Of a DNA stretch of 26,400 bases, positions 1-25,104 are shown piece after piece (positions within the stretch are counted from its first letter, which is position 1; every line of letters begins with the position of its first letter). A program made the position numbers and the translations under genes. The notes beneath the pieces are model-generated. The model did not search any database. It was not told where the DNA came from and was given only the letters and a program-made list of their open reading frames with translations. The stretch is from a virus. The DNA lies in UHGV virus genome UHGV-0369576. One strand, 5' to 3'.

Positions 1-39
1 CCGGGCGTGCGCCAGAATCGCTGATTCTGTCTCTGTCAT
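1..39 (-). CDS. Partial 5' end of a tail assembly gene in the lambda K position; continues past the window start
   Basis: ATG at 39..37 lies 4 nt downstream of the L stop; minus-strand reading MTETESAILAHAR runs to the window edge; position follows L as in lambda tail gene order. Confidence 0.35.
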   Translation of the reverse strand, partial: MTETESAILAHAR

Positions 40-202
40 GGGATTACTGCGAAAGTTTGTTAATGGAAAGGAAGCCGCCAAAGTTGCCGACGTTATTGCG
101 AAACTTACAGCCACTCAGGCATTTGCTGCATTTATCCTTCGTGATATCGGACGTCGGCTGGTCATATTCATCCGCGACAGCCGGACCGCTATAACCGCAC
201 TC

Positions 203-229
203 GTCACCGCGATAGATCCAGGTGCAGGT
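203..229. repeat. Left arm of 27-bp imperfect inverted repeat bounding the inverted L segment
   Basis: Reverse complement of 203..229 matches 491..517 at 24/27 positions; the three differences are all synonymous third-codon positions. Confidence 0.75.
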
Positions 230-232
230 CAC

Positions 233-490
233 GGTATGGTCACCGGGATGGCGGAAGATCTGCAGAGTCTGGTCGGCGGAACGGTGGTCCGGCGTAAGGT
301 TTACGCCCGTTTTCTGGATGCGGTGAACTTCGTCAACGGAAACAGTGACGCCGATCCGGAGCAGGAGGTGATCAGCCGCTGGCGCATCGAACAGTGCAGC
401 GAACTGAGCGCGGTCAGTGCCTCTTTTGTGCTGTCCACACCGACGGAAACGGACGGTGCTGTTTTTCCGGGGCGCATCATGCTGGCCAAC
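233..490 (+). other. Central L coding segment in inverted orientation
   Basis: Plus-strand frame of track ORF 38..523 encodes L-like sequence only from about 233 onward; upstream part of that ORF is antisense read-through. Confidence 0.65.
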
Positions 491-517
491 ACCTGCACCT
501 GGATCTACCGCGGCGAT
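491..517. repeat. Right arm of the 27-bp imperfect inverted repeat
   Basis: acctgcacctggatctaccgcggcgat; encodes TCTWIYRGD on the plus strand, the same peptide encoded by 229..203 on the minus strand. Confidence 0.75.
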
Positions 518-695
518 GGATAAGCCTGATACTGCCGCCCCTGCCAGGTGACTGGTTCACCTTTTTCGTTCTGCTCATTACAGAAGAAATAACGATCTCC
601 GCCGACCTCTGTCAGATCAATTTCCCAGAGCACGACCAGCGCGGATTGCTCCGTTTTAGTGCACTCATTGAGTGTTTCCTGCTGTATATCCTGCA

Positions 696-1052
696 TCAGT
701 GAGTGACCTCTTCAAAGGTACAGTTAAAATCGGTATACATGGTATTATCCGAAATGCTCCACTCCCTGCAGACAACCCGGACAGTCCTGTTGTGTTTTGG
801 CGGACGCCACAAAAAAGCACGAATCCCGGCATGACGGGATAAAAAACTGTCCAGCGCGGCACGGGAATATTCATCTGTGACACGAAATACCGGTTTAAAC
901 GTTTTCAGATCCGCATTCAGACCACCAGCCCGTCGCTGTTCATATCCGTCACCAAACTTTACCGTAATAACTGATGGCTTTCGTGTCGTCTCCATCCCCT
1001 CACGGGGGATCCAGTTAAAAACTTCAGGCTCAGGCACTGTACAATCCTCCAT
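696..1052 (-). CDS. Minor tail protein M (lambda gpM-like)
   Basis: Sequence FNWIPREGMETTRKPSVITVKFGDGYEQRRAGGLNADLKTF resembles lambda gpM; stop overlaps L start (ATGA at 698..694); lies directly downstream of tape measure; start at 1052 chosen by homology (track ORF extends to 1082). Confidence 0.75.
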   Translation of the reverse strand: MEDCTVPEPEVFNWIPREGMETTRKPSVITVKFGDGYEQRRAGGLNADLKTFKPVFRVTDEYSRAALDSFLSRHAGIRAFLWRPPKHNRTVRVVCREWSISDNTMYTDFNCTFEEVTH

Positions 1053-4000
1053 CCCGACGCGATGACTGCATAATTGACACAACCCTGCTGTCGATCAGAT
1101 CCACCAGTCCCCTGGCTGAGCGCGCATCTATCTCGCCATTGCTCCCTTGATTCTGAATGCTGATGTGATACACGGGAGAATAAACAAATCCACCGCCACC
1201 ATTCACATTTCCAATGGCCCTGACCCCAAGAGAGCCGTCCGCTGCCCGTGTCAGTGGCATGATTGCTTCGGGCCCGGCCTCGCCCATCAACCCGGCACCT
1301 TTCGCAAAAGCAAAATACGTCGGTGTATCCACAATAGTGTTACTGTAAGCACTCAGATTTGCCGATGTGTAAACACCACCTTTTGCGTTTGCCACTGCCC
1401 CCGAAATCCATCCGCCGACCGTACCAAGCCACCCTCCGGCACCGGAGAGTGATTTCAGTCCGTTAACAATGGCTGCATTCATCAGAATTTTTGAAACTTC
1501 CCGGAGAACTGAACTCCCCCAGTTCCTCCAGTCCACAACATTCCCGGCCAGTGCATCGGAAATATTTGATACCAGCCCGTCCATCGTGGAAACGACAGCA
1601 TCTGCCGCCTGTGAAGCATAATCGGTGGCACTGTCTGCCCAGTTGGTCAGTCCCTCCTGGAGTCCGGCATTCCAGTTATTACGTAAAGCATCGGCCTTTG
1701 CATAATAATCCTGCTGATCGCTGAGACGCTCTTCCAGATATTTTTTATTCAGTTCTTTCTCCTGTTTCCACAGAGCTTCTTCAATTTCTCCGGCCTGATA
1801 CTGTCTCAGCAGCTCGTTATTTTTCTGCTCAAACGCCTGCCGGATACTCCACATTTCCTGGAGTCGTTCACGCATCCGTGAGCCTTCACCATATCCCAGC
1901 AACTGCGCTTCGTCAGATGCCCGGGCACTGGCATTACTGTCCGCCAGACTGCTCTCATACGCAGCAAGCTGCTCACGAATCTTTTTCTGGTCGATGAGTG
2001 CTGCATTCTGCAAAAGCGTTTTTTTCTGCGCTTCTGACAGGGTTGATAATTCGCCCTGACTGACCTGATATTTCATCTTAGCCAGTTCAGTATTCTGCCC
2101 TGCCAGTGCTATTTGTTCTTTTTGCTGTTTAATCAGCCGTTTATAAATATCTTCTGTTTTTTCCGCTTCGGTCTTTTTATGCGCTTTGGGTTTATTTGCC
2201 TGGTTATTTCGCCAGGCATCCAGTGAGTTATTGATATAATTCTGTCTGGCTGTCTGATACGCCTCTCCCACAAAGCCGAGATCATCCGCAGCATAACCCA
2301 GGCGGGCACGCTCACGGGCTTCCCCCTTCAGGCGGGACAGAGCCAGTTCGCGCTCACTGTTATTCAGTGCGGTCTGCTGTTTATCATCCAGGGTTGCCTG
2401 TGGTAGCCGTAACGGTACATTCACCAGCCCCTGTCGCTGCTGAAGTAATTCATTACCGAGCCCGAGAAGGCGATTAAACTCGGTATGCTGCCCATTCATG
2501 ATCAACAGGGACTGATACGCTTTGTTTTGTTCCGCGGCCTGTTGACGGATCAACGCCACCCGTCGCTCCTCCAGCCCGGCAAGCACATCCTGAATGGATT
2601 GCGCTTTGCCCTGCATTTGTGTGAGACGGGACTGTTCAACTGCCAGTTGATTTGTTGCTTCTGCAAGCCCTTCTGTGACAGTTTTTACCGACGTCATGTG
2701 GTTAATCATAAAACCGTTATCGGTTGTCCAGCCCGGGTTTGCCAGCACATACTGATAGCCAGCAATTTTTTCCTGTAAGGATTTAATCTTACTTTTCTGC
2801 TCGTCAATTAACCTGTTTTGCTCATCAAGTGCCTGCCGCGTCTTTTCCTCATTATCTGACGCTTCAGGAAGCGACATTGCCGACGTTTTCTGGCGAATTT
2901 CGTCGATTGTTGCGGCATACTGGCGTGCAGATTCTCTGGCCTTCTCCTGATTCTGATACATCGTGTACCAGGCCGTCGCCCCCAGCATGACGAGTCCCGG
3001 CACACCACCAACCAACCCCAGCGCACCACTTAACAGACGACTCCCCACTGACGTGACAGTATTCAGCGTTGTCTGTGCCGCTGTTCTGGCCGCAATATTA
3101 CGGGTAAGTGACGCCTGGGCAGCTGTCAGCTTCGCTTCTGCTGCGGCCTGCCTTTCGGTACCGCGAGCAGCAACAACCGCCTGTTGCGCACGATAAACCG
3201 CCGCACGCGCCCTGGCGGTTGCTATCTGTGTCCCCCGAAGTTGCGCTTCAGCAAGAGCCACTTCGTTTCTGGCTGCAGTAATTAATCCGGCAGTTGCAGA
3301 TCCAGCAGACGACGCCATATTGCCAAAATATCGGGCTACCCCGACGGCAACCAGTGCGCCAGCTGCAGCAGCCACGGTATCCATATTGTCTGCAACACCA
3401 TTCAACACCCCGGTGAGTGTCTTTGTCACTCCGCTTGCCTCGTTCGCACCACCAACCCAGGCCATAAAGGCGTTTTCAACTTTGGTTGCAGAGGATGAAA
3501 CAGTATCAGGCATTGCTGCATATTCATCACGCAACGCCCCAAGCTGACTAATCAGTGCAGGAACAACCTTATCGGCGGTCAGTTTTCCGTTATCCGCCAT
3601 GGCCTTCAGATCCTTACGGGCAACACCCATTCCCGCAGCCAGCGCACGAATAACACGATCGCCGTTCTCATTCACAGAGTTAAATTCTTCACCGCGCAGC
3701 ACTCCCTGCGCCAGTGCCTGACTGAACTGCGTGATCACCGAACTGGCTTCTGCTGTACTGGCACCGGATAATTTCAGGCCCGTGGAGATCGCCTCGGTGA
3801 CTTTCAGTACCTCCTCAGAACTGTAGCCATACTCCCGCATGGAAGCTGCAGAGCGGGCAAAAAGGCTGGCGTTATCAGAAAACGCCGTTCCCGTTCTCTG
3901 GCTGATTGCCATTAATTCACGTTGTGATACCTGAAAATCATCACTGGACTGTGAAGCCTGCTTCAGACGGGCATTTACTGAATTCCACTCATCGGCGAGA

Positions 4001-4263
4001 GAAATAAGATGACCGGTAGCAAAAGCTCCGGCAAATGCCCCCGCCATATTCAGTGCCGAAGATTTAGCTGTATTTATCTGATCCGTCACTTCTGCCAGTG
4101 CACGCCGCATTTCACGGGATGCAGCAGCGGACTGCCGGCCTCCGTTCTGCATGGTACGGTAGTAATCCTGCCCCATACGCGAAGCCCGGGAGATCTCTGA
4201 CTGGAATGACCGGGAATTTGCCGAGATTTTAATAATCAGTTCACGTAATGTCGCCACACTCAT
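1030..4263 (-). CDS. Tail tape measure protein (lambda H-like)
   Basis: 1077-aa ORF, Ala/Gln-rich coiled-coil-like middle, Gly-rich C-terminus, positioned after G/GT and before M; ATG at 4263 preceded by GGAGA. Confidence 0.9.
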   Translation of the reverse strand: MSVATLRELIIKISANSRSFQSEISRASRMGQDYYRTMQNGGRQSAAASREMRRALAEVTDQINTAKSSALNMAGAFAGAFATGHLISLADEWNSVNARLKQASQSSDDFQVSQRELMAISQRTGTAFSDNASLFARSAASMREYGYSSEEVLKVTEAISTGLKLSGASTAEASSVITQFSQALAQGVLRGEEFNSVNENGDRVIRALAAGMGVARKDLKAMADNGKLTADKVVPALISQLGALRDEYAAMPDTVSSSATKVENAFMAWVGGANEASGVTKTLTGVLNGVADNMDTVAAAAGALVAVGVARYFGNMASSAGSATAGLITAARNEVALAEAQLRGTQIATARARAAVYRAQQAVVAARGTERQAAAEAKLTAAQASLTRNIAARTAAQTTLNTVTSVGSRLLSGALGLVGGVPGLVMLGATAWYTMYQNQEKARESARQYAATIDEIRQKTSAMSLPEASDNEEKTRQALDEQNRLIDEQKSKIKSLQEKIAGYQYVLANPGWTTDNGFMINHMTSVKTVTEGLAEATNQLAVEQSRLTQMQGKAQSIQDVLAGLEERRVALIRQQAAEQNKAYQSLLIMNGQHTEFNRLLGLGNELLQQRQGLVNVPLRLPQATLDDKQQTALNNSERELALSRLKGEARERARLGYAADDLGFVGEAYQTARQNYINNSLDAWRNNQANKPKAHKKTEAEKTEDIYKRLIKQQKEQIALAGQNTELAKMKYQVSQGELSTLSEAQKKTLLQNAALIDQKKIREQLAAYESSLADSNASARASDEAQLLGYGEGSRMRERLQEMWSIRQAFEQKNNELLRQYQAGEIEEALWKQEKELNKKYLEERLSDQQDYYAKADALRNNWNAGLQEGLTNWADSATDYASQAADAVVSTMDGLVSNISDALAGNVVDWRNWGSSVLREVSKILMNAAIVNGLKSLSGAGGWLGTVGGWISGAVANAKGGVYTSANLSAYSNTIVDTPTYFAFAKGAGLMGEAGPEAIMPLTRAADGSLGVRAIGNVNGGGGFVYSPVYHISIQNQGSNGEIDARSARGLVDLIDSRVVSIMQSSRRDGGLYSA

Positions 4264-4271
4264 TCTCCGGA

Positions 4272-4294
4272 CGAAAAAAACCGCCGAAGCGGTT
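4272..4294 (-). terminator. Intrinsic-terminator-like hairpin between GT and tape measure genes
   Basis: aaccgc-cgaa-gcggtt stem-loop followed on the minus strand by a 7-T run, immediately upstream of the tape-measure SD. Confidence 0.4.
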
Positions 4295-4302
4295 ATGTTG
4301 AC

Positions 4303-4976
4303 TCACTGAGACACTATTAAAAGCGCGTTTTCCAGTCCGGCAAATGGATCTGAGACGCCTTCTGTCTGCTCTTGTTCCCACTGAAGAAGCGCATCATTCA
4401 GTGGGACTTTGACACCCTGCGCACCGTAAACCGCAGAAACTATCTGGGCAGCCCGGATATCAGCCCGCTCGTCACCCAGCGGGCTGAACCTGTCAAATTC
4501 TGCCCACATCATGATTTCTGATGCGGACATTTCCCGGCGTAACTCTGACAATGTGCGCCCCATCCTGAGCGCCAGCATCATCAGAAAACGCATCCCCGGA
4601 AGCGCTACTTTTTTTTAACCTCGCCGGCATCACTGATCAGTTCCAGAGACTGCCGAAGAAGCCGCGCATGCACCGGGCCATACACGGCAATCACCTGTTC
4701 ACGATCATCCTCTGAAAATACAGGTTGCAGTCCGGTATCACACAGAACATCAATGAACAGTTCAACATCTGCCTCCAGATTTCGGCGGGCGCGCTCCGCA
4801 ACGGATAACGGTGTCTCATCATCTTTTGCTTTAACGATCTCCTGCCAGCGCAACCAGGCTTCTGCAGAAGGTTCCCGTAATACAACCGTTGCCCCTTCCC
4901 ATTCAGGCACATCAACAGTTTTATGGCGAAACCCCGACATCGTTGCCAGTGCCAGATTGCGGATATTTTTAGTCAT
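4303..4976 (-). CDS. Tail assembly chaperone G-T fusion made by programmed -1 frameshift
   Basis: ORF 4303..4593 is open upstream through the slippery site in the -1 frame relative to G (reads KVALPGMRFLMM...); classic G/GT arrangement. Confidence 0.7.
4605..4976 (-). CDS. Tail assembly chaperone G
   Basis: Position between major tail and tape measure genes; ends GEVKKK-stop on a run of 8 A; start at second ATG (4976) which has a GAGGA SD. Confidence 0.8.
   Translation of the reverse strand: MTKNIRNLALATMSGFRHKTVDVPEWEGATVVLREPSAEAWLRWQEIVKAKDDETPLSVAERARRNLEADVELFIDVLCDTGLQPVFSEDDREQVIAVYGPVHARLLRQSLELISDAGEVKKK
4608..4614 (-). promoter_or_regulatory. Slippery heptamer A_AAA_AAG for the G/GT -1 frameshift
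   Basis: Minus-strand GTT AAA AAA AAG TAG at the end of G; the -1 frame continues without a stop into T. Confidence 0.7.
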
Positions 4977-4990
4977 CACATCTATCCTCA

Positions 4991-5695
4991 TTAACTGACG
5001 GTAACAGTGCAGGAAGTGGAGGTCACCTTGTTAACAGGGCTTGCTGAATCAGAAATCTCGCAGGTATACGCACCGGCATCACCTGATGCTGCTGATGCCT
5101 TACTGAATGTTGCCGCCGTCTGTCCGGAAACAGGAGAACTACCTTTCTTCCAGACATAAGAATAAGGCGGCACACCACCGGCAGCCTCAACCACCATTTC
5201 GAGTTTCGCTCCGGCAGAAACCTGCAGCGTGCTGTTTAAATCGACCTTCACTTTCAGCGGCTCTGTCGTCAGCACAGGTTTACCTTTCAGGCGCAGGGAA
5301 AACGTTGCAGCCACAACACCATTAGTTCCTGCAGACCAGGTATGCTGACGCACCTCTGCCATAAAGGTAAATCCGTTGCCTGACGGAAAAATAACTTTAA
5401 AGCCATACGTGGTGTCATTGTCATAGGCACTGCGCAACGCGTTCTGGGCAGCATTGAGGTAAAAGTTGCCTGACATGGAAATCTCTGACGCGGCACCAAG
5501 GCCGTTAATATTTTCCTGCTCAACAGAACACAGCGTGGTGACATCAATATCCTGCTTTTGTCCTGCGGTAAACTGCACCTCTTTGATTGTACAGCTCAGG
5601 CCAAGATAGCTGGCAGAATCCAGGGTTTCTGCTGTTACCGGTGCAGACGAAATCATAATTTTCGTCAGTTGCGAACGCTCAAAATTAGAGGACAT
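4991..5695 (-). CDS. Major tail (tube) protein with C-terminal Ig-like domain
   Basis: Position upstream of G/GT; C-terminal ~80 aa resemble a Big_2-type Ig domain (PPYSYVWKKG...AYTCEISD); ATG at 5695 with AGGAGA SD, downstream of a terminator hairpin. Confidence 0.85.
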   Translation of the reverse strand: MSSNFERSQLTKIMISSAPVTAETLDSASYLGLSCTIKEVQFTAGQKQDIDVTTLCSVEQENINGLGAASEISMSGNFYLNAAQNALRSAYDNDTTYGFKVIFPSGNGFTFMAEVRQHTWSAGTNGVVAATFSLRLKGKPVLTTEPLKVKVDLNSTLQVSAGAKLEMVVEAAGGVPPYSYVWKKGSSPVSGQTAATFSKASAASGDAGAYTCEISDSASPVNKVTSTSCTVTVS

Positions 5696-5710
5696 ACTCG
5701 TCTCCTGAAA

Positions 5711-5736
5711 ATAAAAAACCCGCCAGCGGCGGGTGG
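5711..5736 (-). terminator. Hairpin plus T-run upstream of the major tail gene
   Basis: cccgcc-agc-ggcggg stem followed on the minus strand by ttttttatttt. Confidence 0.45.
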
Positions 5737-5754
5737 GTAAAATCATTAACGACC

Positions 5755-6099
5755 TCAGGCTATTACCTGAAATTCAAGCGTGGCTCTGCTCAGACGGGAA
5801 TCAGGATCATAACCCTGAGTTTTAGAAATAACGGAAGGTGCAAGTTGCCTTACCGCATCAAGCGCCTGCTCACGGATATCATCTGCGTCATCAGGTACTG
5901 TTGCCCAGACATCGATCTGCACGGTAATTCTGGATTCAGCCTGACCATCAAGCACATCAGACGCAGTGTCAGACACCACAGAAAATACCAGCCATGGCGG
6001 AGATACCGCAGGCTTTCCCTCCGTCAGCGGGACCACATAAGGATAAACCTGTCCTCCGGCCAGTTGAGACAGCAGGGAATACAGTGTGGTCTCTCTCAT
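5755..6099 (-). CDS. Tail terminator / tail completion protein (DUF3168-like position)
   Basis: 114-aa ORF immediately upstream of the major tail gene; start overlaps the preceding stop. Confidence 0.55.
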   Translation of the reverse strand: MRETTLYSLLSQLAGGQVYPYVVPLTEGKPAVSPPWLVFSVVSDTASDVLDGQAESRITVQIDVWATVPDDADDIREQALDAVRQLAPSVISKTQGYDPDSRLSRATLEFQVIA

Positions 6100-6542
6100 T
6101 TACTTAAGACCTCATCAATAGCCTGATTCATTCGCTGTATGGCAATCTGTGCTGCCAGTTCCTCTGTCGTATCGAAAGCCGGGCGAATGAACGGATGCGC
6201 GGGCATGTTTATCGTTCCCAGCTCCACAAAGCGCCAGTAAAACGCATTTCGGGGATCACTGGCTTTCATGCTGTTATCACTGTTTCCGGTTCGCAGGTTC
6301 CGTCCACGAATGTGGACACCCGAGATAATTTCCCCCCGACGCTTTGAACGCTGAGTGAGAACAACCACATTTTTCTTCAGTTTCCCGGTTCGCTCCGGCG
6401 CACGTTCAACAACTGCATCCCGCATAACTTCAGCACCGGCACGGGTGGCATCGCGCAGTACCTTATTGTTTTCTGCCCTGCTGAGCGTCTCCAGATCCCG
6501 TGCAATATCCGCCAGACCTGAAAAATCAAGACTGAAATCCAT
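6096..6542 (-). CDS. HK97 gp10-family tail component
   Basis: Motif TINMPAHPFIRPAFD typical of the HK97 gp10 family; ATGA overlap with the upstream gene. Confidence 0.7.
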   Translation of the reverse strand: MDFSLDFSGLADIARDLETLSRAENNKVLRDATRAGAEVMRDAVVERAPERTGKLKKNVVVLTQRSKRRGEIISGVHIRGRNLRTGNSDNSMKASDPRNAFYWRFVELGTINMPAHPFIRPAFDTTEELAAQIAIQRMNQAIDEVLSK

Positions 6543-6880
6543 CACACATTCCCCTTCTGAGAACAGAGTATCTCAAGCCGTGTGGCACGAGCATCCGGTA
6601 TCGGCGGACCGTCTATACTCAGAATCGCGCCTTTGAATGCACCAGTCAGCACTTTCAGACATGAAGTTGCTGTTACATCTCGCCGGAATCTCATCCAGAC
6701 CCTCACTGTAGCCTGAGCAGTTTCTGCGCCTCCGGATATTCTCTCCCTGCCACTGATCCCCTTAACTTCTGCCCATATGGTTGCCCCCTCCGTCATTGTT
6801 TCCACAGGGTGCCCTGACGGAGACCGAACGGTGGTGGCATTCAGAATAACCACACGATCACGTAATCTTCCTGCCTGCAT
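6542..6880 (-). CDS. Head-tail adaptor / head closure protein
   Basis: 112-aa ORF in the conserved connector block between capsid and tail genes. Confidence 0.6.
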   Translation of the reverse strand: MQAGRLRDRVVILNATTVRSPSGHPVETMTEGATIWAEVKGISGRERISGGAETAQATVRVWMRFRRDVTATSCLKVLTGAFKGAILSIDGPPIPDARATRLEILCSQKGNV

Positions 6881-6888
6881 GAATCCTC

Positions 6889-7194
6889 CTATGTTCCGGG
6901 ATGAAATCGATACATCCGCAGTCCGGTATAGAAAAAATCAGGCACTGCATCCTGCATTTCCCTGTTCTCGTACCAGTAGCCAACCAGTTGCATAAGACGC
7001 AGTTTTATCAGAGGTGTTATTACAAGCCCGGTCGTATCCTGCTCAGAAACAGTTTCATCGTAAAGCGTCCGGTTTAAAAACTTTTCAGCCTCTTCCCTGG
7101 CAGCAGCCAGATACATCATAAGAAGAGAATTCTCCTGTTCATTGTCATCATCAATCCGGCACTGAACACGAAGCTCTTCCAGAGTGGGCATCAT
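6889..7194 (-). CDS. Head-tail connector protein (gp6-like)
   Basis: 101-aa acidic protein in the expected position after the capsid gene. Confidence 0.6.
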   Translation of the reverse strand: MMPTLEELRVQCRIDDDNEQENSLLMMYLAAAREEAEKFLNRTLYDETVSEQDTTGLVITPLIKLRLMQLVGYWYENREMQDAVPDFFYTGLRMYRFHPGT

Positions 7195-7205
7195 TTGGGC
7201 AACCT

Positions 7206-7394
7206 CTATGAATGCTGTTTTTTAGACTTATCAGCCCCCCGCGCAACAGGTGTTCTCTTATCAGAGACAATCCCAGCTGCAGTGGCAATTTCGCGTACCC
7301 GTTCGGGTAATTCTTTATCTTCATACTCACCGGCCCGAATAATCTCAACACGCATACCGTCCGGTGACCATTTCAGATCTTGTTTCAGGATCAT
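7206..7394 (-). CDS. Hypothetical protein (62 aa)
   Basis: ATG with AGGTGA SD, located between the capsid gene hairpin and the connector genes. Confidence 0.45.
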   Translation of the reverse strand: MILKQDLKWSPDGMRVEIIRAGEYEDKELPERVREIATAAGIVSDKRTPVARGADKSKKQHS

Positions 7395-7413
7395 GATTCT
7401 TTCACCTGTCAGA

Positions 7414-7440
7414 ACAGGGGGCGCACTTCTGCGCCCCCTG
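7414..7440 (-). terminator. Stable GC hairpin immediately downstream of the major capsid gene
   Basis: gggggcgca-cttc-tgcgccccc, a 9-bp perfect stem just after the capsid stop; weak T tract. Confidence 0.45.
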
Positions 7441-7445
7441 AATGA

Positions 7446-8651
7446 TTACGCCGCTGCAATCTTCAGCAGTTTGATGGCCTGCGAATCGACCAGCATGCCG
7501 CCGGTGCGCTTGGTGGTATAAAAACCGACAAACGGTTTATTGGTGTACGGGTCACGCAGAATGCGGGTACCGATACGGTCAACGATGGTGTAACCCCGTT
7601 TGAAGTTACCAAATGCAATGGCTTTCGCATCAGCGGCAATATCCGGCATCTGTTCGTTTTCAGCGATAGCGTAACCCGCCAGAGAGGACGGCTGCCCCAG
7701 CTCCAGCCCCGGACGCCACAGATAGTTACCCTCACTGTCTTTCAGCAGACGGATGGCAAACAGACTGTTGTTGTTCATCATGAACTTCGCGCCAGTGCGG
7801 TGTGCCTTACGCAGCGTGTAAATCAGTTTGATAATGGCATCTGCGGTCACCGCCGTCGCTTCGCCGGATACAATATGCTGAAGTTTGCCGAACGCCCGGA
7901 CCTTGTCTGTTTCATCCGTGGACTCATACGCCAGGAACCCTTTCGGCTTCTTGGTACCATCGCCGGTGGTAAAGGCAATTTCTTCCTGTTCGGCAAATTC
8001 GGTTGCCAGCTCGCTGTTGATCCATGCTTCCACGTTGAAAAAGGCATCATCCAGCATTTTCTGGGTGGCCTGCGGGTTACCGTAGATTTCCCCCATGAAA
8101 GGTTCAATCAGGCCCAGTTTTGAGGTGGCAGTCTGGGAGCGCGCGTCAGTCTCGCCAACCCATCCGGAAGCCGTGCCGCCCAGATTCACCAGTTTTTTGT
8201 AGTCGGAACCACCAACGCTGATCACCGTGGCTTCCTGGCGCATCACCACTTCATCTTTCAGCAGGGTGAGAATGTTGCGATCCAGTGCTTCCGGCACGGC
8301 ATAGCCGCCGTCTTCATCGGTGCCCACCTGTAATGCCTTGCGCTCCAGATCGCGCAGACCATCTTCACGGCCTTTACGCAGGAAGCCCACAAACGCTTCT
8401 TTATGCTCGGTGGCCAGTTTATTTTGCGCACCACCTGCCGGACGTTTCAGCTCAAGCAGCTCTTTTTCAAGATCGCTTTTGAGGTTTTCCAGCTCGCTGA
8501 GTTTCCCGTTCAGGGTTTCCACCTGCCCGGCAAGTTTGCCTTTTTCCTGCTCAATCGCATCCACGCGCTTGTCGTTCTTTGCTTTGAAGTCGTCAAACTT
8601 CTGCTGCAGCTCCTGCGCGACCTGTTCGACATCTTTAATATCAACCGCCAT
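7446..8651 (-). CDS. Major capsid protein (HK97 fold) with N-terminal delta/scaffold domain
   Basis: 401 aa; N-terminal ~100 aa coiled-coil (KFDDFKAKNDKRVDAIEQEKGKL...); follows prohead protease; AGGAGA SD. Confidence 0.9.
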   Translation of the reverse strand: MAVDIKDVEQVAQELQQKFDDFKAKNDKRVDAIEQEKGKLAGQVETLNGKLSELENLKSDLEKELLELKRPAGGAQNKLATEHKEAFVGFLRKGREDGLRDLERKALQVGTDEDGGYAVPEALDRNILTLLKDEVVMRQEATVISVGGSDYKKLVNLGGTASGWVGETDARSQTATSKLGLIEPFMGEIYGNPQATQKMLDDAFFNVEAWINSELATEFAEQEEIAFTTGDGTKKPKGFLAYESTDETDKVRAFGKLQHIVSGEATAVTADAIIKLIYTLRKAHRTGAKFMMNNNSLFAIRLLKDSEGNYLWRPGLELGQPSSLAGYAIAENEQMPDIAADAKAIAFGNFKRGYTIVDRIGTRILRDPYTNKPFVGFYTTKRTGGMLVDSQAIKLLKIAAA

Positions 8652-8665
8652 CGTATTTCTCCTGA

Positions 8666-9316
8666 TTAGAAGTTCAGATTTTTCAGTGCATTCAGTGCAG
8701 AGCCCACATCCTCAGCGTCGCGCAGGGACAGTGCGCCATAGCCCCCGGCCATGAATGCTTTGGCCTGGGTACGGGAGAGTCCGACATCACGCAGGACTCT
8801 TTCGATTTTTTTCTGTTCGGGGATTTCCCCGCGGGCCAGTGCGTTCTTGACGTCGCTGATCCGCGCCTCGTCGTTAGACGGGAACGTCACCAGGCTGACT
8901 TCCCAGAGGTCGATTTCTTTCAGCAGAAAGGCTTCTTTGCTCCGGTCGTATTCCCAGTCTTTCAGGACGTACCCAATAGAAAGGCCGGTTAACGAACCGG
9001 CCTTCATGTGTGCATGTGCGCGTTTTGCGAGGGGATCATCATCAATAAGCAACCGTCCCCTGACGTAAAGCCCGACATCGTCTTCCTTCATTTCGGTGTA
9101 AACACCGATGGGTTCATCCATGCGGTGCTGCCAGAGCAGCGCAGGTAACGCTTTTCTGTCACTCCACGCCCGCAGGGAAGCAGCAAATGCCCCGGACATC
9201 ACCACATCATCGTGGCTGTCCTTTACACCAAAGACGGAGCCATACCCTTCAAACTCACCGGAGTCACTGACAGATTTCAGACTCAGCGGTACATCAAGAC
9301 GTTGTTTCGTCTGCAT
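8666..9316 (-). CDS. Prohead protease (HK97 gp4 family)
   Basis: Motif GEFEGYGSVFGVKDSHDDVV; sits between portal and capsid genes; start at 9316 chosen for its AAGGA SD. Confidence 0.85.
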   Translation of the reverse strand: MQTKQRLDVPLSLKSVSDSGEFEGYGSVFGVKDSHDDVVMSGAFAASLRAWSDRKALPALLWQHRMDEPIGVYTEMKEDDVGLYVRGRLLIDDDPLAKRAHAHMKAGSLTGLSIGYVLKDWEYDRSKEAFLLKEIDLWEVSLVTFPSNDEARISDVKNALARGEIPEQKKIERVLRDVGLSRTQAKAFMAGGYGALSLRDAEDVGSALNALKNLNF

Positions 9317-10535
9317 TGGCGTTATCCTTCTGCTTACCGGCTTTACTGCCATCGGATGGTTTCGTGGTCATGTTCATCGGTGTGAGATAGACATCCCCAC
9401 CGGGACGCGGATTCATATCTTCCAGGTCGCGGCAGTCATTGGGAGAGTAAATTCCCCAGTTGATCCCGGTGGCGTAGGCTTCAAAACGGGACTTCATATC
9501 CCCGCGCAGTAACGCCCCGGCGTTAAATTTGGCGTAATAAACGCCCTGCTTACTTTTTCGTACCAGTCCGGTGTTGATCCGCTGTTCGATGCGGGTCAGA
9601 TACGGCACCAGTGAATAGTTGATAAATCCCAGCCCCAGCTCTTCGATATTGTTGAAGGTGGCGCGATCGGTGTTCTGCACCATGTGCAACGGCACCCGGA
9701 ACAGACGACAGATTTCTTCAAGCTGAAACTTGCGGGTTTCCAGGAACTGGCTGTCCTCGGCGTTCAGCGCCATCGACTTCCAGTCCAGCCCCATCTCAAG
9801 GATCATCGGGCGGTGAGCATTGCCAAGCCCGGTGTGACGCTCCTCAAAATCTTTCTTCAGGCGCTCATAAGCCTGATCCGACAGCGTCTGTTCTGTACGC
9901 AACACACCGGACGTCACCGCACCATTGCTGAACAGTCTGGCCCCGTGCTCTTCGGTCGCTGCTGCCAGCGATATTGCCTCGCGGGCATAGGCGATGGGAT
10001 TCAGTCCCACCAGACCGTCCAGCGTCAGCGTGCGCACATGCCAGATATCTTCCTGGCTCAGTACATCCGTGGAACCGTCCGGGAATGTGACCTGATAGAC
10101 CGGCTCCCAGCGACTGTTAAGCTTCGGTACCACACAACCGGGATCGACGGGCAGCAGTTCAGCCACTTCGCCAAATGCTTTCACTTTGTAGGCGTAAAAG
10201 TTTCCCCTCAGGCACAGACAGGTGACCACCAGCTCCCAGAACTCCTGCGGCGTCATATAGCCATTGGGATGCGTGGAGATCAGCTTATGCAGACGTTCGC
10301 CGGTGGCTCTCTGTTTCAGGCTGCCGTTCAGGTGATACAGATTGCAGGGCAACATCCCGACCGACTCTGCTAGCACTCTGACGCAGGAAAAAACCGCCGT
10401 CAGTCGCATGGCCCGCTGACTGCTGATCTGCTTTCCGGTATAGGTGTCGTAAGACAACCCGATGGCATCCGCCAGCTCTGCTGGCGTGGTCACCGGCGCG
10501 TCACTTTTTCGTTGAAATAATCCCGAAAAGAACAC
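9294..10535 (-). CDS. Portal protein
   Basis: 413-aa ORF directly after the terminase genes; GTG start preceded by GGAGGT. Confidence 0.9.
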   Translation of the reverse strand: MFFSGLFQRKSDAPVTTPAELADAIGLSYDTYTGKQISSQRAMRLTAVFSCVRVLAESVGMLPCNLYHLNGSLKQRATGERLHKLISTHPNGYMTPQEFWELVVTCLCLRGNFYAYKVKAFGEVAELLPVDPGCVVPKLNSRWEPVYQVTFPDGSTDVLSQEDIWHVRTLTLDGLVGLNPIAYAREAISLAAATEEHGARLFSNGAVTSGVLRTEQTLSDQAYERLKKDFEERHTGLGNAHRPMILEMGLDWKSMALNAEDSQFLETRKFQLEEICRLFRVPLHMVQNTDRATFNNIEELGLGFINYSLVPYLTRIEQRINTGLVRKSKQGVYYAKFNAGALLRGDMKSRFEAYATGINWGIYSPNDCRDLEDMNPRPGGDVYLTPMNMTTKPSDGSKAGKQKDNANADETTS

Positions 10536-12968: not shown

Positions 12969-13116
12969 AATCGGTCTTACCTATCAATCGTTTGTTCACA
13001 TTTCCAAAAAAAAGTTTTCGAACCTGCGGCGATATGAGGAAGGGTCAGGCGGCGGTACTGAGCAGCCAGGGTTGCAGAGATTTGACCCGCCCCTCCCCTA
13101 CAGATGGGAACTGTTA

Positions 13117-13467
13117 TCAATTGATGCGTTCGCGCGCTGTTTTTGCTTTATGACAGGGCCAGCACAGACTCTGCAGGTTACTGTCTGCATCCGTGCCACC
13201 ATGAGCTTTCGGAATGATGTGGTCCACAGTTCTGGCTTCAACGGCTCTCCCATTGCGCAGGCAGTTCTGACACAGATGATTATCACGCTTCAGTATGCGC
13301 GCACGTATGGCATCCCATTTCGAGCCATAGCCACGCTGGTGGCGGCTCAGTCCGCGTTGATGCTGTACCCATCCTTCGCCACGATGTTTATCGCAGTAAC
13401 CAGAACTGTCTGTGGTTGTACCTGCACATCCACGCTTACGGCAGGCGCGTGGGATTCGTGATGGCAT
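13117..13467 (-). CDS. HNH endonuclease (packaging-associated)
   Basis: Cys pairs and HNH motif (CQNCLRNGR...VDHIIPKAHGG...CWPCHKAK); immediately upstream of TerS as in HK97-like cos phages. Confidence 0.85.
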   Translation of the reverse strand: MPSRIPRACRKRGCAGTTTDSSGYCDKHRGEGWVQHQRGLSRHQRGYGSKWDAIRARILKRDNHLCQNCLRNGRAVEARTVDHIIPKAHGGTDADSNLQSLCWPCHKAKTARERIN

Positions 13468-13474
13468 AAATACC

Positions 13475-13675
13475 TCACCCCCTGTTCAGTTGAATGACGG
13501 GCTGATTCTCGATATGTTCTGCTGTCAGTCTGAAAGTCACAGTGACTGTTGGTGGCTCGCCTCCGCGTGACTCTGTCCTGGCGGAAAGCTGCCCTTCCAG
13601 TAACTCACCATCAACTGCAATCCCATACCCTGCGAAATGTTTACCACGATACAGTTTAGCGACCTGAAACTTCAT
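13475..13675 (-). CDS. Hypothetical protein (66 aa)
   Basis: ATG with AAGGAAGAG SD; coupled upstream of the HNH gene. Confidence 0.45.
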   Translation of the reverse strand: MKFQVAKLYRGKHFAGYGIAVDGELLEGQLSARTESRGGEPPTVTVTFRLTAEHIENQPVIQLNRG

Positions 13676-13919
13676 AACTCTTCCTTTTAGACATGTTAGA
13701 CGTGAACCTGTCGCACGGCAGAGTCGCCGAAAGTTTACGGTTTACCCAGGCTCACAGCTGAAAGCCTTTCTTAGATGTGCACATGCGATATGCTTTGAAT
13801 GAATTATTAAAAACTTTACTCTTTTTCAAAATTTCGTATCCTGGCTCGTTAATGTTAAAGAATTAAACGTAAGAAAGTAGTATGTTGAATCGCTTATATC
13901 AAAATACATAGGACTCAAA

Positions 13920-14405
13920 ATGCCAGAACTCGTTGATCCAACAGACTCATTAATTAGTTTTCAATACGCCTTTTCTAATGGTCTGATTAAGCCTTCACCA
14001 TGCATAGTTCACCCAAATATGAAGGTGCTTTTGGATGATGCAGAGGGTACGCCACGGTTTACTTATGCATTCTTTGAAGGAGAAAATGTTAAAGGTGTTG
14101 CTATATATGTCCCTGCAGAGTTTGTTGAAGGTAAACCATGCTTTGGCGTTGGCTATGCAGTAGCCGATGAATATAAAGCGCAAGGCATCGGTACTCAACT
14201 TCTCATCGCCAGCATTGAAGAAATGCAATACGGATTTAGAAATTCCTTCAATGAATTCTATGTAGAGGCTATTGTCGGGGTTGGTAATCAAGCCTCCAAC
14301 AAATTAGCTGCAAAAGTTTTATCTGATACTCCTGAGCCAGGGACAGATTCTTACTCAGGAAAACCTATCAATCAGTACATGAAACTTTTCAAAACCACAA
14401 AATAA
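13920..14405 (+). CDS. GNAT-fold N-acetyltransferase-like moron
   Basis: Motif-A-like VGYAVADEYKAQGIGTQLL (Q-x-x-G-x-G) and motif-B-like FYVEAIVGVGNQASNKLAAKV; opposite strand to all neighbours; AT-rich; own AGGA SD and downstream hairpin. Confidence 0.55.
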   Translation: MPELVDPTDSLISFQYAFSNGLIKPSPCIVHPNMKVLLDDAEGTPRFTYAFFEGENVKGVAIYVPAEFVEGKPCFGVGYAVADEYKAQGIGTQLLIASIEEMQYGFRNSFNEFYVEAIVGVGNQASNKLAAKVLSDTPEPGTDSYSGKPINQYMKLFKTTK

Positions 14406-14415
14406 CTACCATTCT

Positions 14416-14437
14416 GGCGCAGATTTTTGCGCCTTTT
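14416..14437 (+). terminator. Hairpin plus short T-run after the GNAT-like gene
   Basis: ggcgc-agattttt-gcgcc followed by tttt on the plus strand. Confidence 0.35.
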
Positions 14438-14583
14438 CAGGTTTGCAGTTCACCTGCCACGCTTTGTTATGCACCTGAATGTCCCGCTTCGTCTGTTGCA
14501 TTATCATAAGTAATAGCGTAGGTTGACACCTTGGCTCTCTTTCGCCACCGGCGAATCTTTAGCGGATTATCCTTGGCCGTTTT

Positions 14584-15051
14584 TTATCTGAGACATTGCT
14601 CACGAATGTATAGCTGTGCCCCTTCCAGTTGCTTCTGCATCGTCATCAACCGTTCTCTGAGGGTGAAATAATCCCGTTCAGCGGTGTCTGCCAGTCGGGG
14701 GCTGGTTGCATTATCCACGCTGGTGGGTCCGGTGGCTTCACGCACGGCTGCGGAGCAACTGGCATTGACCCGCAGGCGCTTACGACCAGCGGCAACATCA
14801 GCGCGCAGAGTTTCATTTTCAGCTTTCGCATTGGCTAATTCTCTCGAGTACTTTGCATCGAGCGCAGCAACATCACGCTGACGCTGTTGCATGTCAGCGA
14901 TGGTGGCAGTCGCCTGCTTCAGCTCACTGACTTTTTTATCACGCTGTTCTTTGTAGGCGATGGCGTTATCACGGTAATGATTGACCGCCCACGACAGGCA
15001 GACGATGGTGCAGATAACCAGAGTATAAATAATCGCTGCGACTCTGCTCAC
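14584..15051 (-). CDS. Rz: Rz i-spanin
   Basis: N-terminal TM helix then coiled-coil; GTG start overlaps endolysin stop (GTGA); contains embedded Rz1. Confidence 0.8.
14646..14831 (-). CDS. Rz1: Rz1 o-spanin lipoprotein embedded in Rz in the +1 frame
   Basis: Signal peptide with lipobox VSAC, proline-rich mature part, entirely within Rz. Confidence 0.8.
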
Positions 15052-16463: not shown

Positions 16464-16538
<75 letters not shown>

Positions 16539-16541
16539 ATA

Positions 16542-16617
<76 letters not shown>

Positions 16618-16619
16618 AC

Positions 16620-16696
16620 TGGACCGCCACCGGGGACTCGAACCTCGCACACTCAACTTAAAGGGTTGACGCTCTTTCCTGATGAGCTAGTGGCGG
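16620..16696 (-). tRNA. tRNA-like gene with non-canonical features (anticodon region CCUUUAA, possibly UUU/Lys)
   Basis: Perfect 7-bp acceptor stem starting C1-G72, D and T arms present, encoded CCA, but C at position 33 and an A-C mismatch in the T stem. Confidence 0.45.
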
Positions 16697-16697
16697 C

Positions 16698-16773
16698 TGG
16701 TGGCCCTTGCTGGATTTGAACCAGCGACCTGGCGATTATGAGTCGCTCGCTCTCACCACTGAGCTAAAGGGCC
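16698..16773 (-). tRNA. tRNA with CAU anticodon (Ile2/Met type, ileX/ileZ-like)
   Basis: Anticodon loop CUCAUAA; overall similarity to E. coli ileX from memory; encoded CCA. Confidence 0.7.
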
Positions 16774-20343: not shown

Positions 20344-20579
20344 AGCCTGCTTCTCCTTGCCTTTCGGCACGTAAGAGGCTAACCTAGATTTGCCGTTCAT
20401 AGATTGAGCCTCAGATTAATGTTAAGCGTCTTGCAGGACGCGTAATGTTAACTGGGGCTTTTCTCTATCTGCCTTTGGTGTTCATGCCTGAGACAGATAG
20501 CCTCAAGCACCCGCAGCCATTCTACTTAACTCCCGTTACCTCGCCAATATAAAATCAATCAGAAAGGTGATCCATAAAA

Positions 20580-21266
20580 TCACTCCTTCTCTTCTTTTCC
20601 GTAGTGGAGTTGGCCAATTTTGATAAGAGGGCGTCCCTGAGATTTGCGGTGTAGATTGGTATCGCGCAGAGAATACACACAGCCACAATATTCCTGCTGA
20701 TAGAATTTTTCGCGCTTGCTGATTTCAATCATACGGGACGAGCCGCCCTGCTTGCGCCAGTTATAATCCCAGTACACCATACCCGGATAATGCGCAACAG
20801 CTCGCCGCCCACACTCGTTAACCTGCTGCATATTTTTCCAGCGTGAAATGCCCAGTGAACTGCTGATCACACTGAAACCATTTTCAGCAGCGTACAACGC
20901 TGTCCGCTCAAAACGCATGTCAAAACACATGGTACAACGGATCCCCCTCTCAGGCTCCCATTCCATTCCTTTGGCACGTTCAAACCAGTTGTCGGTGTCG
21001 TAATCAGCATCGATAAACGGCACGCCGTGTTGTTCAGCAAAGCGAATATTTTCATCCTTACGAATTAAATACTCTTTCTGAGGATGAATGTTCGGGTTGT
21101 AGAAAAAGATGGTGTAGTCGATTCCCGAGGCCTGAAGCGCCTCCATCACTTCACCGGAACATGGAGCACAGCAAGAGTGCAGTAGTAGTTTGTTTGCCCC
21201 GTTTGGGAGCTCCAATTTAGGCCGTTTGAAATCAGCAATAGTCATAAATATTTTTATTGGGGTCAT
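20580..21266 (-). CDS. Cys-rich DUF208/QueH-like protein (putative epoxyqueuosine-reductase family)
   Basis: N-terminal [14 protein letters not shown] motif plus further Cys clusters (CTMCFD, EYCGCVY); family assignment from memory of the motif only. Confidence 0.45.
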
Positions 21267-21419
21267 GAAAATAGCACAGAGTGTAGCATCAGAGCAGGTC
21301 TATCGGGAATATATGTCTAAATCTGGTAATATCTGGTTTTGACGCAAAGCGGACAACCACGCTGGCTCTACCCTGCGCCATGAAAATGTCAATTCACATC
21401 TGAACTAATGCTCTTTAAT

Positions 21420-21845
21420 CTAGTAACGTCTAAAATACCTAACATTTCCTTGATAAAATGCCAGTACACGCTGCATAGCTTCGCTCTTCCGGCACTCGCG
21501 ACAGATTATATTCAGGCGCCTGTCGTAGCGGCGTATTTCGCCGTCTGGTAACGACCAGATAAGGTCCGGATCAACCACTGCAGGTTTCTTCACCTTTGCC
21601 CTTGAGAGTTTTTTGCGAGCATTTTGCCAGTCCTTACGCGCCTGTTCAGACGGGAATAACCCGTAACCAGAGTTGTATACATCGCCACTGGCAACCAGCT
21701 CTCTGGCGAGAACACTCATCAGATATCTTGTCGCACCTGTCCTGGCTTCCAGTTGCCGCAACGTCTCGCGACCGCTCAGACGTACAAGTTCAACAACCTG
21801 CCCTTTAATTTTTTCCCGCTCTTCTTGTGTAAATACTTTTGCCAT
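21420..21845 (-). CDS. Hypothetical protein (141 aa), possible HTH
   Basis: ATG at 21845 with GGAGG SD, coupled to the upstream gene; basic C-terminus. Confidence 0.45.
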   Translation of the reverse strand: MAKVFTQEEREKIKGQVVELVRLSGRETLRQLEARTGATRYLMSVLARELVASGDVYNSGYGLFPSEQARKDWQNARKKLSRAKVKKPAVVDPDLIWSLPDGEIRRYDRRLNIICRECRKSEAMQRVLAFYQGNVRYFRRY

Positions 21846-21860
21846 AAGCGCCTCCGGCAA

Positions 21861-22631
21861 TCACTTTTCCGATACAACACGGCGGGAAGAATCAGTAATC
21901 TGTCGAACAATATCCCGGTGCTTGTTCAGCTCCCGCAGCGCGGCGCAGACTCGCTCCCACTTCTGAACATCACTTTTCGCCCTGCGCAGCGCCAGGTTTG
22001 CCCTGCGAAGGGACGGAAAAATCAGCTCATCTGCTTGCGTTTCGGTAAACGATGGCAACGGCTGCACAATGTCCGCCACAGTTTCTGTTTTAATTTCTTC
22101 CTGTGTTGCGGCTTCCCGGACTGGTAACGCAGCACCTGCTGGCTGAGGAAAGGCCTTACCATCACTTTCCGTTACCAGCGCGGCTTTCGGCTCTGCTGGT
22201 AAATTATCGCCCGGCATGCAGTAACGAAATTTACCGTTCTGATTAACGCGTGCCAGCCGCCCCGTTGCGGTTACCACCGCCAGCGTGGAAGCAACCTTGC
22301 GAGTACTGACACCGAACTTACCCGCCAGTTCCTCACACGTTTTAGCCCCATCCTGACCGATAAACTCAATCATCATGTCTGCGGTAACTTTTTGTTCGAC
22401 CTCCCCGGTCAGCATATCCTGTGCTTCAGATTTTACTGGCCGCTCTTCGGTTACCCGGGATTCACCTTCGCCAGCCAGAAACCAGGTGTGACCAGTTTTA
22501 TCAACGACGCCTTTTCTTTTGAGTTCCCACAGCTCGTTGACAGCCTCTTCACGACTGATTCCAAGGCGAGCTGCCACCACATGTGAAGAGGCTTTTTTCA
22601 GTGCTTTCAGTGCGTCAGATACGGTTTCCAT
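21861..22631 (-). CDS. Hypothetical protein (256 aa) with two winged-helix-like repeats
   Basis: Internal repeat AARLGISREEAVNELWELKRKGVV versus LAGKFGVSTRKVASTLAVVTATGRLARV; sits after the replication genes. Confidence 0.45.
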   Translation of the reverse strand: METVSDALKALKKASSHVVAARLGISREEAVNELWELKRKGVVDKTGHTWFLAGEGESRVTEERPVKSEAQDMLTGEVEQKVTADMMIEFIGQDGAKTCEELAGKFGVSTRKVASTLAVVTATGRLARVNQNGKFRYCMPGDNLPAEPKAALVTESDGKAFPQPAGAALPVREAATQEEIKTETVADIVQPLPSFTETQADELIFPSLRRANLALRRAKSDVQKWERVCAALRELNKHRDIVRQITDSSRRVVSEK

Positions 22632-22652
22632 TAAAATTTCCTCCGGACAAAA

Positions 22653-23399
22653 TTACTTCACAACCCTCATATTGCTGACATTTGGACGCCAGCTATCCCA
22701 GTTAAACGTCACCCATCGACCACCGTTCATGGTCATGCGGTCCATAATCCTCTCACCAAGAAGCGTACTCATTGCGGCATGATTCAGGTTTGTTAACATC
22801 CCGACACTGCACAGTGATGCTGTCCGGCGATCAATTATCTGGTGCAATACCACCTGCTCGTTTTTCGTCTCCCGCTGAACGCCTATTTCATCCAGGACCA
22901 GCAAATCAACCCCGCAAAGCTCCTGTAAAAATTTTTCCCCGGATTTGCCGTTGTCGTAGCTGTCATGCAACACGCTCATGACGTCAGACACGGTGACGAT
23001 AATCACGCTGCGCCCCTTCACCATCAGCCGGTTGCCCATCGCCGCTGCAAGGTGATTTTTCCCGGTGCCGGTTTTACCGCTGAACACAAAATTCGTGCAC
23101 CCGGTCATCAGTTCGTCAGCTATGGATTTGGCCTGGCTCAGCGCGTATTTTTGCCCGTCGTTCTGCACCTGATAATTTGCAAACGAGCATTTGCTGTGCA
23201 GAGGCTGGATGCCCGAACGATTCAGGATTTTTTCCACCCGCAACTGGCGATTCTGGCGGTTAATCTCCTCGCTGCGTTTTCGTCCTTCAGCAAGTTGCCA
23301 TTCCCGCCACTCCTCCACCGTCCGGTACGGTGGAACCGACCCCTGTGGTGCAAGTCTGCGAATACGTTCAAGAACCCCAACTGCCGCAATGTTTTTCAT
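22653..23399 (-). CDS. DnaC-like replicative helicase loader (AAA+ ATPase)
   Basis: Walker A GKTGTGKNHLAAA and Walker B LLVLDEIG. Confidence 0.85.
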   Translation of the reverse strand: MKNIAAVGVLERIRRLAPQGSVPPYRTVEEWREWQLAEGRKRSEEINRQNRQLRVEKILNRSGIQPLHSKCSFANYQVQNDGQKYALSQAKSIADELMTGCTNFVFSGKTGTGKNHLAAAMGNRLMVKGRSVIIVTVSDVMSVLHDSYDNGKSGEKFLQELCGVDLLVLDEIGVQRETKNEQVVLHQIIDRRTASLCSVGMLTNLNHAAMSTLLGERIMDRMTMNGGRWVTFNWDSWRPNVSNMRVVK

Positions 23400-23405
23400 G
23401 ACACG

Positions 23406-24368: not shown

Positions 24369-24390
24369 AAAACCCCCGAACACCGTGCTT

Positions 24391-24816
24391 TTAGTGCATC
24401 ACCACAGCATTCCCTGCCGGGCCGCCGCGATTCATCTGGTCATACAAAACAACCGCTGACGCAACAAAATCATCGACATCCTTCACCAGCCGATCCCTCC
24501 GTTCGACGATCTCACGGTAATATTCAGAACTGTGGCTGCGCATACGGGCCACCAGCAAAGGCGGCATCGCCTTTTCGATCGCCGGTAACAGAGCCTGCAT
24601 TTTTTCAACAGCATCAGGGGTGTCTTTCTCTACCCAGCGGAAAATTTTCTGGGTATTGCGAGCCAGGGCTTCCGGATGGCTGTCGTCATACAGTTCTGGG
24701 AACGTCATACCCAACTCAAAATAAGCCTGGGTTATTCCAGCTGCTGGAACTTTTTCGCCATCAGGACGCGCCCAGGCATTCATCGCCATGCGGATGTGTT
24801 CATGCTTGATTTTCAT
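24391..24816 (-). CDS. YdaT-like protein in the cII position
   Basis: 141-aa ORF downstream of the Cro-like gene with AGGAG SD; family call from memory of Rac prophage gene order. Confidence 0.5.
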   Translation of the reverse strand: MKIKHEHIRMAMNAWARPDGEKVPAAGITQAYFELGMTFPELYDDSHPEALARNTQKIFRWVEKDTPDAVEKMQALLPAIEKAMPPLLVARMRSHSSEYYREIVERRDRLVKDVDDFVASAVVLYDQMNRGGPAGNAVVMH

Positions 24817-25081: not shown

Positions 25082-25104
25082 AGCTACTCCTTAGTAAACA
25101 CAGC

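Follow-up and report, generated by a model that had tools for sequence, protein, structure and literature searches.

Gene L in three pieces on alternating strands: a two-allele joint in a lambdoid prophage or an assembly error

Introduction

How a tail gene that is a single uninterrupted frame in related prophages comes to lie in three pieces on alternating strands is the question raised by the left end of the virus genome UHGV-0369576, a lambda-like prophage of E. coli. The window, by which is meant the whole stretch of 26,400 nt that was analysed, begins on the minus strand with part of a lambda-type tail operon; within its left 1.1 kb the genes follow in the order H, M, the pieces of L, and the start of K. 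The same H-M-L-K order is annotated in the relatives L001, L003 and L016, the last being the prophage of strain WP2-S18-ESBL-07. An initial annotation, made from the sequence alone, attributed the state of L to an internal inversion bounded by a 27-bp inverted repeat. The locus is considered here from its anatomy, from the alleles that it combines and from its occurrence in public collections.

Results and discussion

Anatomy of the split gene L

Alignment by BLAST of window positions 1-1100 with the intact M-L-K loci of close relatives resolves the region into three blocks. Positions 518-1100 are colinear with the relatives and 100% identical to them. Positions 231-518 match on the opposite strand over 288 nt, with 99.65% identity to the closest relatives (L005-L016) and 97.6% identity to the relative L001 (E 2e-143). 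Positions 1-229 then form a colinear block once more. The intact L gene of the relatives is 699 nt long and encodes 232 aa, and serves as the reference for the L nucleotide coordinates used throughout.

Each block carries a defined portion of the gene. The 5' fragment (518-696, minus strand) holds L nt 1-179, that is codons 1-59 and two further nucleotides, and is 100% identical to the relatives. The inverted core (231-518, plus strand) holds L nt 254-541, which encode residues Y85-D180. The 3' fragment (44-229, minus strand) holds L nt 514-699, comprising codons 172-232 and the stop. L nt 180-253 (74 nt) are absent from the window, a deletion that runs from the third base of codon 60 to the first base of codon 85 and so is not one of whole codons. 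By comparison L nt 514-540/541 (27-28 nt) are present twice.

The translated pieces were also compared with the Pfam profile PF05100 (Phage_tail_L, 206 profile positions). All three match the profile, in colinear order, at positions 1-32 (517-696, minus strand), 58-153 (233-517, plus strand) and 144-206 (47-229, minus strand), with scores of 46, 143 and 88 bits against a gathering cut-off of 25. The intact L of a relative spans positions 1-206, whereas the pieces in the window leave 25 profile positions uncovered and cover about 10 twice. A continuous L ORF of about 232 aa covering positions 1-206 is absent from the window, the pieces lying on alternating strands. The initial annotation had described three colinear pieces on alternating strands, with coordinates that prove right to within 1-2 nt, and its estimate that about 25 codons were missing agrees with the 25 profile positions and 74 nt found here. 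The alignment against intact L genes of related prophages, which it had proposed as a check, defines both the breakpoints and the missing nt 180-253, and shows the gene uninterrupted in the relatives.

From the L start the frame passes through the 5' fragment, continues into the right arm of the inverted repeat and stops at 505-507 after 63 codons (ORF 505-696). The truncated product consists of 59 native residues followed by PSPR and the stop, and the earlier view that L is inactivated therefore holds. The genes on the right-hand side are undisturbed: the M homologue (696-1052, minus strand) is intact and 100% identical to that of the relatives, and the tape-measure gene H (1030-4257, minus strand) is likewise intact.

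A chimeric ORF of 161 aa on the plus strand (38-523) is regarded as spurious. The strand opposite the L 3' end (38-229, plus strand) holds a long open frame, which after the rearrangement continues in frame into the inverted core of L. A gene caller could take the 161-aa ORF for a real protein with a Phage_tail_L domain.

The inverted repeat and the junctions

A repeat search called an inverted repeat at 204-229 and 491-516 (26 nt, 92%), which extends to 27 nt at 203-229 and 491-517 with 24 of 27 positions matching; the arms agree perfectly over 17 nt at most. Both arms encode the peptide TCTWIYRGD, and the three differences between them (TAT/TAC, GGT/GGC and GAC/GAT) are synonymous. The 27-bp repeat with three synonymous differences, as first described, is thus real. 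Taken alone it barely beats chance, the maximum in 200 shuffles being 23/27. What decides the matter statistically is the inverted homology of 288 nt, the shuffle test on the repeat only being weak.

The repeat does not, however, have the role first assigned to it. Intact L genes hold the 27-mer once only. The left arm (203-229), which is the allele-2 copy of L nt 514-540 (the alleles are defined below), is external to the inverted block, and the right arm (491-517), the allele-1 copy of the same nucleotides, falls within it. The repeat is therefore the duplication of 27-28 nt made by the join; it is a by-product of that join and no recombination site. This arrangement contradicts the proposal that the inversion was mediated, or symmetrically bounded, by the repeat. 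Nor do the breakpoints fall at the repeat, since the true junctions lie at 229/230/231 and at 518. When the flanks are compared with their natural continuations, junction 1 shows 0 nt of homology and an orphan base, the C at position 230, which is templated by neither flank: against every reference one BLAST block stops at 229 and the next begins at 231. Junction 2 shows 1 nt of homology. By inspection, no pre-existing partner repeat that might act as a quasi-palindrome seed was found near nt 180-253 of intact L.

A programmed or recurrent invertible segment, flipping between the 27-bp arms as an intragenic inverton, had been raised as a possible explanation. The geometry is superficially right, with arms of about 26-27 bp lying 261 bp apart inside a phage tail gene, and inverted repeats of about 26 bp around a segment in a tail gene are a feature shared with the tail-fibre invertase systems Gin, Cin, Pin and Hin and with intragenic invertons. 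Against this, the arms are duplicated coding sequence found here only, intact L having one copy, and their longest perfect match is short. Flipping the segment in silico leaves the stop at 505-507 in place and the core out of frame (net -46 nt relative to intact L), so that the two orientations are both non-coding; unlike the known systems, the locus is also represented by one sequence only. No invertase is annotated in prophages that are 99.4-99.9% identical over the window, and the sole recombinase annotated in near-identical prophages is a distant, frameshifted integrase. The core of Hin/Gin-type crossover sites follows the pattern AAACCNNGGTTT. With up to 2 mismatches allowed this core has 13 matches against 12.8 expected, none of them at 203-229 or 491-517. 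Either junction, in either state, occurs in 0 of 5,426 genomes. Finally, gpL is a hub protein, whereas invertases of the Gin/Cin/Pin/Hin type vary tail-fibre proteins. The invertible element is effectively refuted, and little credence can be given to it.

Two alleles of L

The blocks derive from two forms of the gene. Allele 1 is the L of the resident lineage and allele 2 is the L/K type of a lambda-like prophage in E. coli 2017.15.02CC (L004). Window positions 518-10257 are 100% identical to the prophages in GCA_053690295.1 and GCA_045573945.1 (L008 and L012), and positions 518-20577 are 99.9% identical to the prophage of strain WP2-S18-ESBL-07. In all three of these prophages L is intact, with 232 aa. 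As the flanking sequence is shared at 100% and 99.9% with prophages that have an intact L, the rearrangement is recent and derived.

Positions 1-229 have a different origin. This block contains the L 3' fragment together with the 5' end of K (1-39, minus strand), a gpK homologue that carries the name C40 family peptidase in 2017.15.02CC. It has 15 mismatches in 229 positions against allele 1 (93.4% identity) and is 100% identical to allele 2. The 2017.15.02CC prophage is true-lambda-like, and its M and H are unrelated to those of the window. The inverted core differs from allele 1 at a single position, L nt 258 (window 235), where it carries T, the allele-2 base. Between the two alleles L nt 180-258 are hypervariable; the sequences are then identical over nt 259-413 (155 nt) and similar to about nt 552. 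The arms of the inverted repeat differ in precisely the way that allele 1 and allele 2 do at nt 531, 537 and 540, and it can be reasoned that a single parental L, or a simple hybrid, would not be able to supply both arms. The suggestion that two diverged L alleles are involved is thereby confirmed, whereas a purely intragenic event is not: the locus is instead a three-part chimera of two prophage lineages.

The median genome holds 4 L-matching places, and several co-resident L genes are the norm. Inter-lineage exchange within L does happen, as shown by the natural P1-type prophages AR_0077 and phage 640R1, in both of which the 5' half is of allele 1 and the 3' end of L is a different one. Homologous recombination of two L genes was considered for the present locus and rejected, because in neither orientation can it invert the block relative to the flanks. 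A derivation of the left and middle pieces from what was once one known allele was also rejected, the 'restored' sequence giving a best match of 98.2% among the 5,426 genomes.

Lineages commonly exchange K and the 3' end of L by homologous recombination, as in AR_0077 and 640R1, and this would accommodate a history in two steps. An illegitimate intragenic inversion, with a 28-nt duplication and the 74-nt deletion, would first have arisen in a pure allele-1 L, and homologous exchange would later have replaced K and the L 3' end by those of allele 2. The crossover would, however, be confined to the 17 identical nt from window 213 to junction 1 at 229, with no homology beyond. RecA recombination in E. 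coli has a minimum homology of about 23-27 bp, and 17 nt is shorter than the length usually needed. The allele-2 base that lies beyond junction 1, at L nt 258, is also left unexplained. A relative with both junctions and an allele-1 3' piece was absent from all collections searched, which leaves the two-step history unsupported, and such a history is considered very improbable indeed.

Occurrence in other genomes

The junctions were sought in several collections. For both junctions, junction-spanning megablast gave 0 matches with at least 80% coverage among 5,426 complete genomes of E. coli, in which the junction queries have about 13,000-15,000 matching places. For junction 2, megablast found 0 places with at least 80% coverage among INPHARED phages and PLSDB plasmids. 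Exact-pattern scans of IMG/VR, the GTDB species representatives and the JGI metagenomes gave 0 matches to both junctions, and exact-protein look-up found none of the junction-specific ORFs (63, 161, 95 and 62 aa) on record. The exact H protein occurs in 462 blocks of a public collection. In the 10 of these 462 places that were listed, L is an intact 232-aa gene beside the identical H, except for one assembly (L010) with fragmented gene calls, and the L rearrangement was seen in 0 of the 10. The rearranged L is a singleton, derived from a prophage that is intact in other respects and was shared very recently.

When homologues of the 161-aa chimeric ORF were sought, only two other antisense-sense fusions of L were found. 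One (L017, JAHQAQ010000068.1) lies at the start of a 7,180-bp draft contig in a contig-terminal hairpin, the first 183 nt being the reverse complement of the contig's own positions 542-724. The other (L018, LQUK01000198.1) fills a near-palindromic 1,203-bp contig and has 8 nt of microhomology at the join. A further case, from a Shigella sonnei draft (L019, CXFV01000035.1), has L, K and L joined in tandem, and a single N falls exactly at L nt 258/259. Single-N scaffold joins are seen in this draft at 5399, 6558, 8051 and 10173. Several L proteins with internal direct duplications (P0002, P0003, P0005 and P0006) were also observed. Where L is structurally odd in public data, assembly is often the cause, and the breakpoints are concentrated close to the border of the conserved core, as in the window.

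The three cases resemble the window in that their joins lie inside L, with loops of 78-358 nt, and in where the sense strand begins, which in each is close to the core's 5' edge (L nt 241, 294 and 259, compared with 254 in the window). They differ from it in context: L017 has its join at the beginning of a contig, L018 lies in a contig of 1.2 kb, and in L019 the join is one made in scaffolding and marked by a single N. The arms of L017 are of the same allele, whereas the window combines two junctions and two alleles without Ns and, unlike all three, has 26 kb of clean sequence on one side. As four independent assemblies have breakpoints at L nt 241-294, a real rearrangement could mark a recurrent fold-back site (a replication U-turn) where the conserved core of lambdoid L genes has its 5' edge, although this is very unlikely. 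If the fold-back reading were true, the window would hold a fresh and as yet unpurged illegitimate joint of two co-replicating lambdoid phages. It would then be a defective intermediate of the kind predicted by the illegitimate-recombination model of phage mosaicism and rarely caught.

The contexts of these fusions bear on a further explanation, that the locus is an artefact of assembly, scaffolding or library preparation and that L is biologically intact. With two or more lambdoid prophages having near-identical L cores in one cell, a chimeric fold-back, or a repeat piece that was misplaced or flipped, could have entered the contig. This is a possibility of real weight, though not the one we would back. 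Several observations are in keeping with it. L is multi-copy, and the inverted block (nt 254-541) is approximately the block conserved between the alleles. The core is an allele-2/allele-1 hybrid, as expected when read sets are merged through an identical stretch. Closed 1-nt gaps would be consistent with both the orphan base at 230 and the ambiguity at 518, and the Shigella sonnei draft has its single Ns at L/K joins, one of them at L nt 258/259. The other two L fold-backs are located at a contig start and in a contig of 1,203 bp. Chimeras formed during amplification are mostly inverted joins with intervening deletions (PMC1855051). A singleton with zero divergence from relatives with an intact L is also what an artefact would give.

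Other observations are harder to reconcile with an artefact. The window is without any N, and the other 25.9 kb are perfectly colinear with the relatives. Neither junction has the exact k-mer overlap needed by a de Bruijn path, the arms of the repeat differ at 3 sites and hence offer no contig overlap, and the ends of the inverted core (nt 254 and 541) are no node boundaries for the two alleles. A specific version, in which the inverted core is a de Bruijn repeat node and the arms are its k-1 overlap, was rejected on the grounds that the arms differ at these 3 sites and that the core ends between allele-specific sites. The 74 nt of unique sequence that are missing would lie on a high-coverage true path, which should outcompete rare chimeric reads. 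They are directly continuous with the unique 26-kb side of the window. Their absence argues that the join was present in the DNA, since they are allele-specific, single-copy sequence that a graph assembler normally carries through.

A proposed template-switch joint of two L genes

The explanation favoured here, to which we give a probability of roughly 0.5, is a single illegitimate joint of the template-switch type between two lambdoid L genes, which left L null. The parents would be the resident prophage, with an HK97-type head and a lambda-type tail, as the source of allele 1, and a second lambdoid phage or prophage as the source of allele 2. The joint would have been formed in a cell and would be neither site-specific nor homology-driven. 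Read in the sense direction of L, copying would have followed allele 1 up to L nt 179, jumped to the opposite strand at nt 541 and traversed the conserved core in reverse as far as nt 254, with a change of template to allele 2 at some point within the 155 nt that are identical. A second jump, with the addition of one untemplated base, would then have led to allele-2 nt 514 and on into K. The same path may be described as two fold-backs of opposite polarity, one from sense 541 to antisense 179 on allele 1 and the other from antisense 514 to sense 254 on allele 2, the two joins being linked via the identical core. The process may have been copy-choice template switching during replication or break repair, of the fold-back or FoSTeS/MMBIR type. 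Its outcome would be the loss of 74 nt and the duplication of the 27-28 nt that appear as the 'inverted repeat'.

Tandem inversion duplication in Salmonella and E. coli was reportedly described by Kugelberg et al. in 2010. Inversion by intermolecular template switching, with the spacer becoming inverted, is documented (PMC8604942). The window has two breakpoints with an inverted templated segment between them, the junctions at 229-231 and 518 being 288 nt apart. Such a segment, accompanied by a small duplication and a small deletion, is shared with both FoSTeS/MMBIR and tandem inversion duplication, and the two junctions of opposite polarity within 288 nt, together with the use of more than one template, are FoSTeS/MMBIR-like. 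The bacterial cases in the literature begin from existing short quasi-palindromes that are separated by a few nt, whereas the window is without a pre-existing inverted repeat and would require jumps of 260 and 362 nt with 0-1 nt of microhomology. It differs from those cases also in having two diverged alleles as templates.

Several features weaken the template-switch reading. Microhomology of at least 2 nt is usually reported for such events, compared with the 0-1 nt found here, and a literal reading of the allele-2 base at nt 258 calls for three switches. The joint is a singleton, and the other antisense-sense fusions of L occur in contexts typical of artefacts. The feature also lies within 700 nt of the left edge of the window, which is possibly a contig end.

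Consequences for gpL

In lambda, gpL and gpJ make up the final ring of the tail tip, and gpL carries a [4Fe-4S] cluster on Cys173, 182, 205 and 212 (PMC10721106). All four cysteines are kept in the 44-229 fragment, which is not translatable from the L start. The likeness to lambda gpL thus extends to the colinear PF05100 pieces, the H-M-L-K gene order and the ligands of the cluster. In contrast to lambda gpL, the N-terminal beta-sandwich (HDI) domain is partly missing and partly inverted: it has lost residues 60-84, and residues 85-180 of the protein are encoded on the other strand. The frame stops after 63 codons, as in a pseudogene.

If the sequence is true, L would be a null pseudogene. In classical lambda genetics an L-null phage is tail-defective unless gpL is supplied by another prophage. 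L being null, the prophage would have no tail tip of its own unless a co-resident lambdoid prophage supplied gpL. A real event would therefore represent one more route to a defective prophage, which would make DNA-filled heads and no tails of its own unless gpL were supplied, as well as a tidy natural example of a multi-template, non-homologous joint of two lambdoid genomes in an essential gene. If the locus is an artefact, it illustrates how the near-identical L cores of co-resident prophages trap assemblers and annotation. Neither reading brings a new biological principle: the locus is a one-off complex rearrangement pseudogene or an assembly error, and as such a known kind of thing.

Other features of the prophage

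The remainder of the window contains several further features. At 4303-4991 (minus strand) two adjacent ORFs (128 aa and 96 aa) are the counterparts of the relatives' tail assembly chaperone and protein T, and by position this is the site of the programmed -1 frameshift of lambda G/GT. A boundary in the mosaic structure is seen at about 20577-25856. Positions 518-20577 are WP2-S18-ESBL-07-like (99.9%), while the replication and immunity region at about 20.6-25.9 kb is 99.4% identical to a G12-type prophage and matches WP2-S18 only in patches, at 88-89%. Cargo-like genes, with names taken from the G12 annotation, are found at 13920-14405 (plus strand) and 20580-21266 (minus strand). A GNAT acetyltransferase gene is encoded by the plus strand, whereas its HNH/terminase and lysis neighbours are read from the minus strand, and the early region contains a homologue of QueH (epoxyqueuosine reductase) and a hokD toxin gene according to the G12 annotation. 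Finally, a cluster of four tRNA genes (16464-16773, minus strand) is situated between the Q antiterminator and the holin, and comprises Gly-TCC, Thr-TGT, Lys-TTT and a tRNA with a CAT anticodon. The last is called Met by ARAGORN and tRNA-Ile in near-identical prophages, and is probably a lysidine-modified Ile tRNA.
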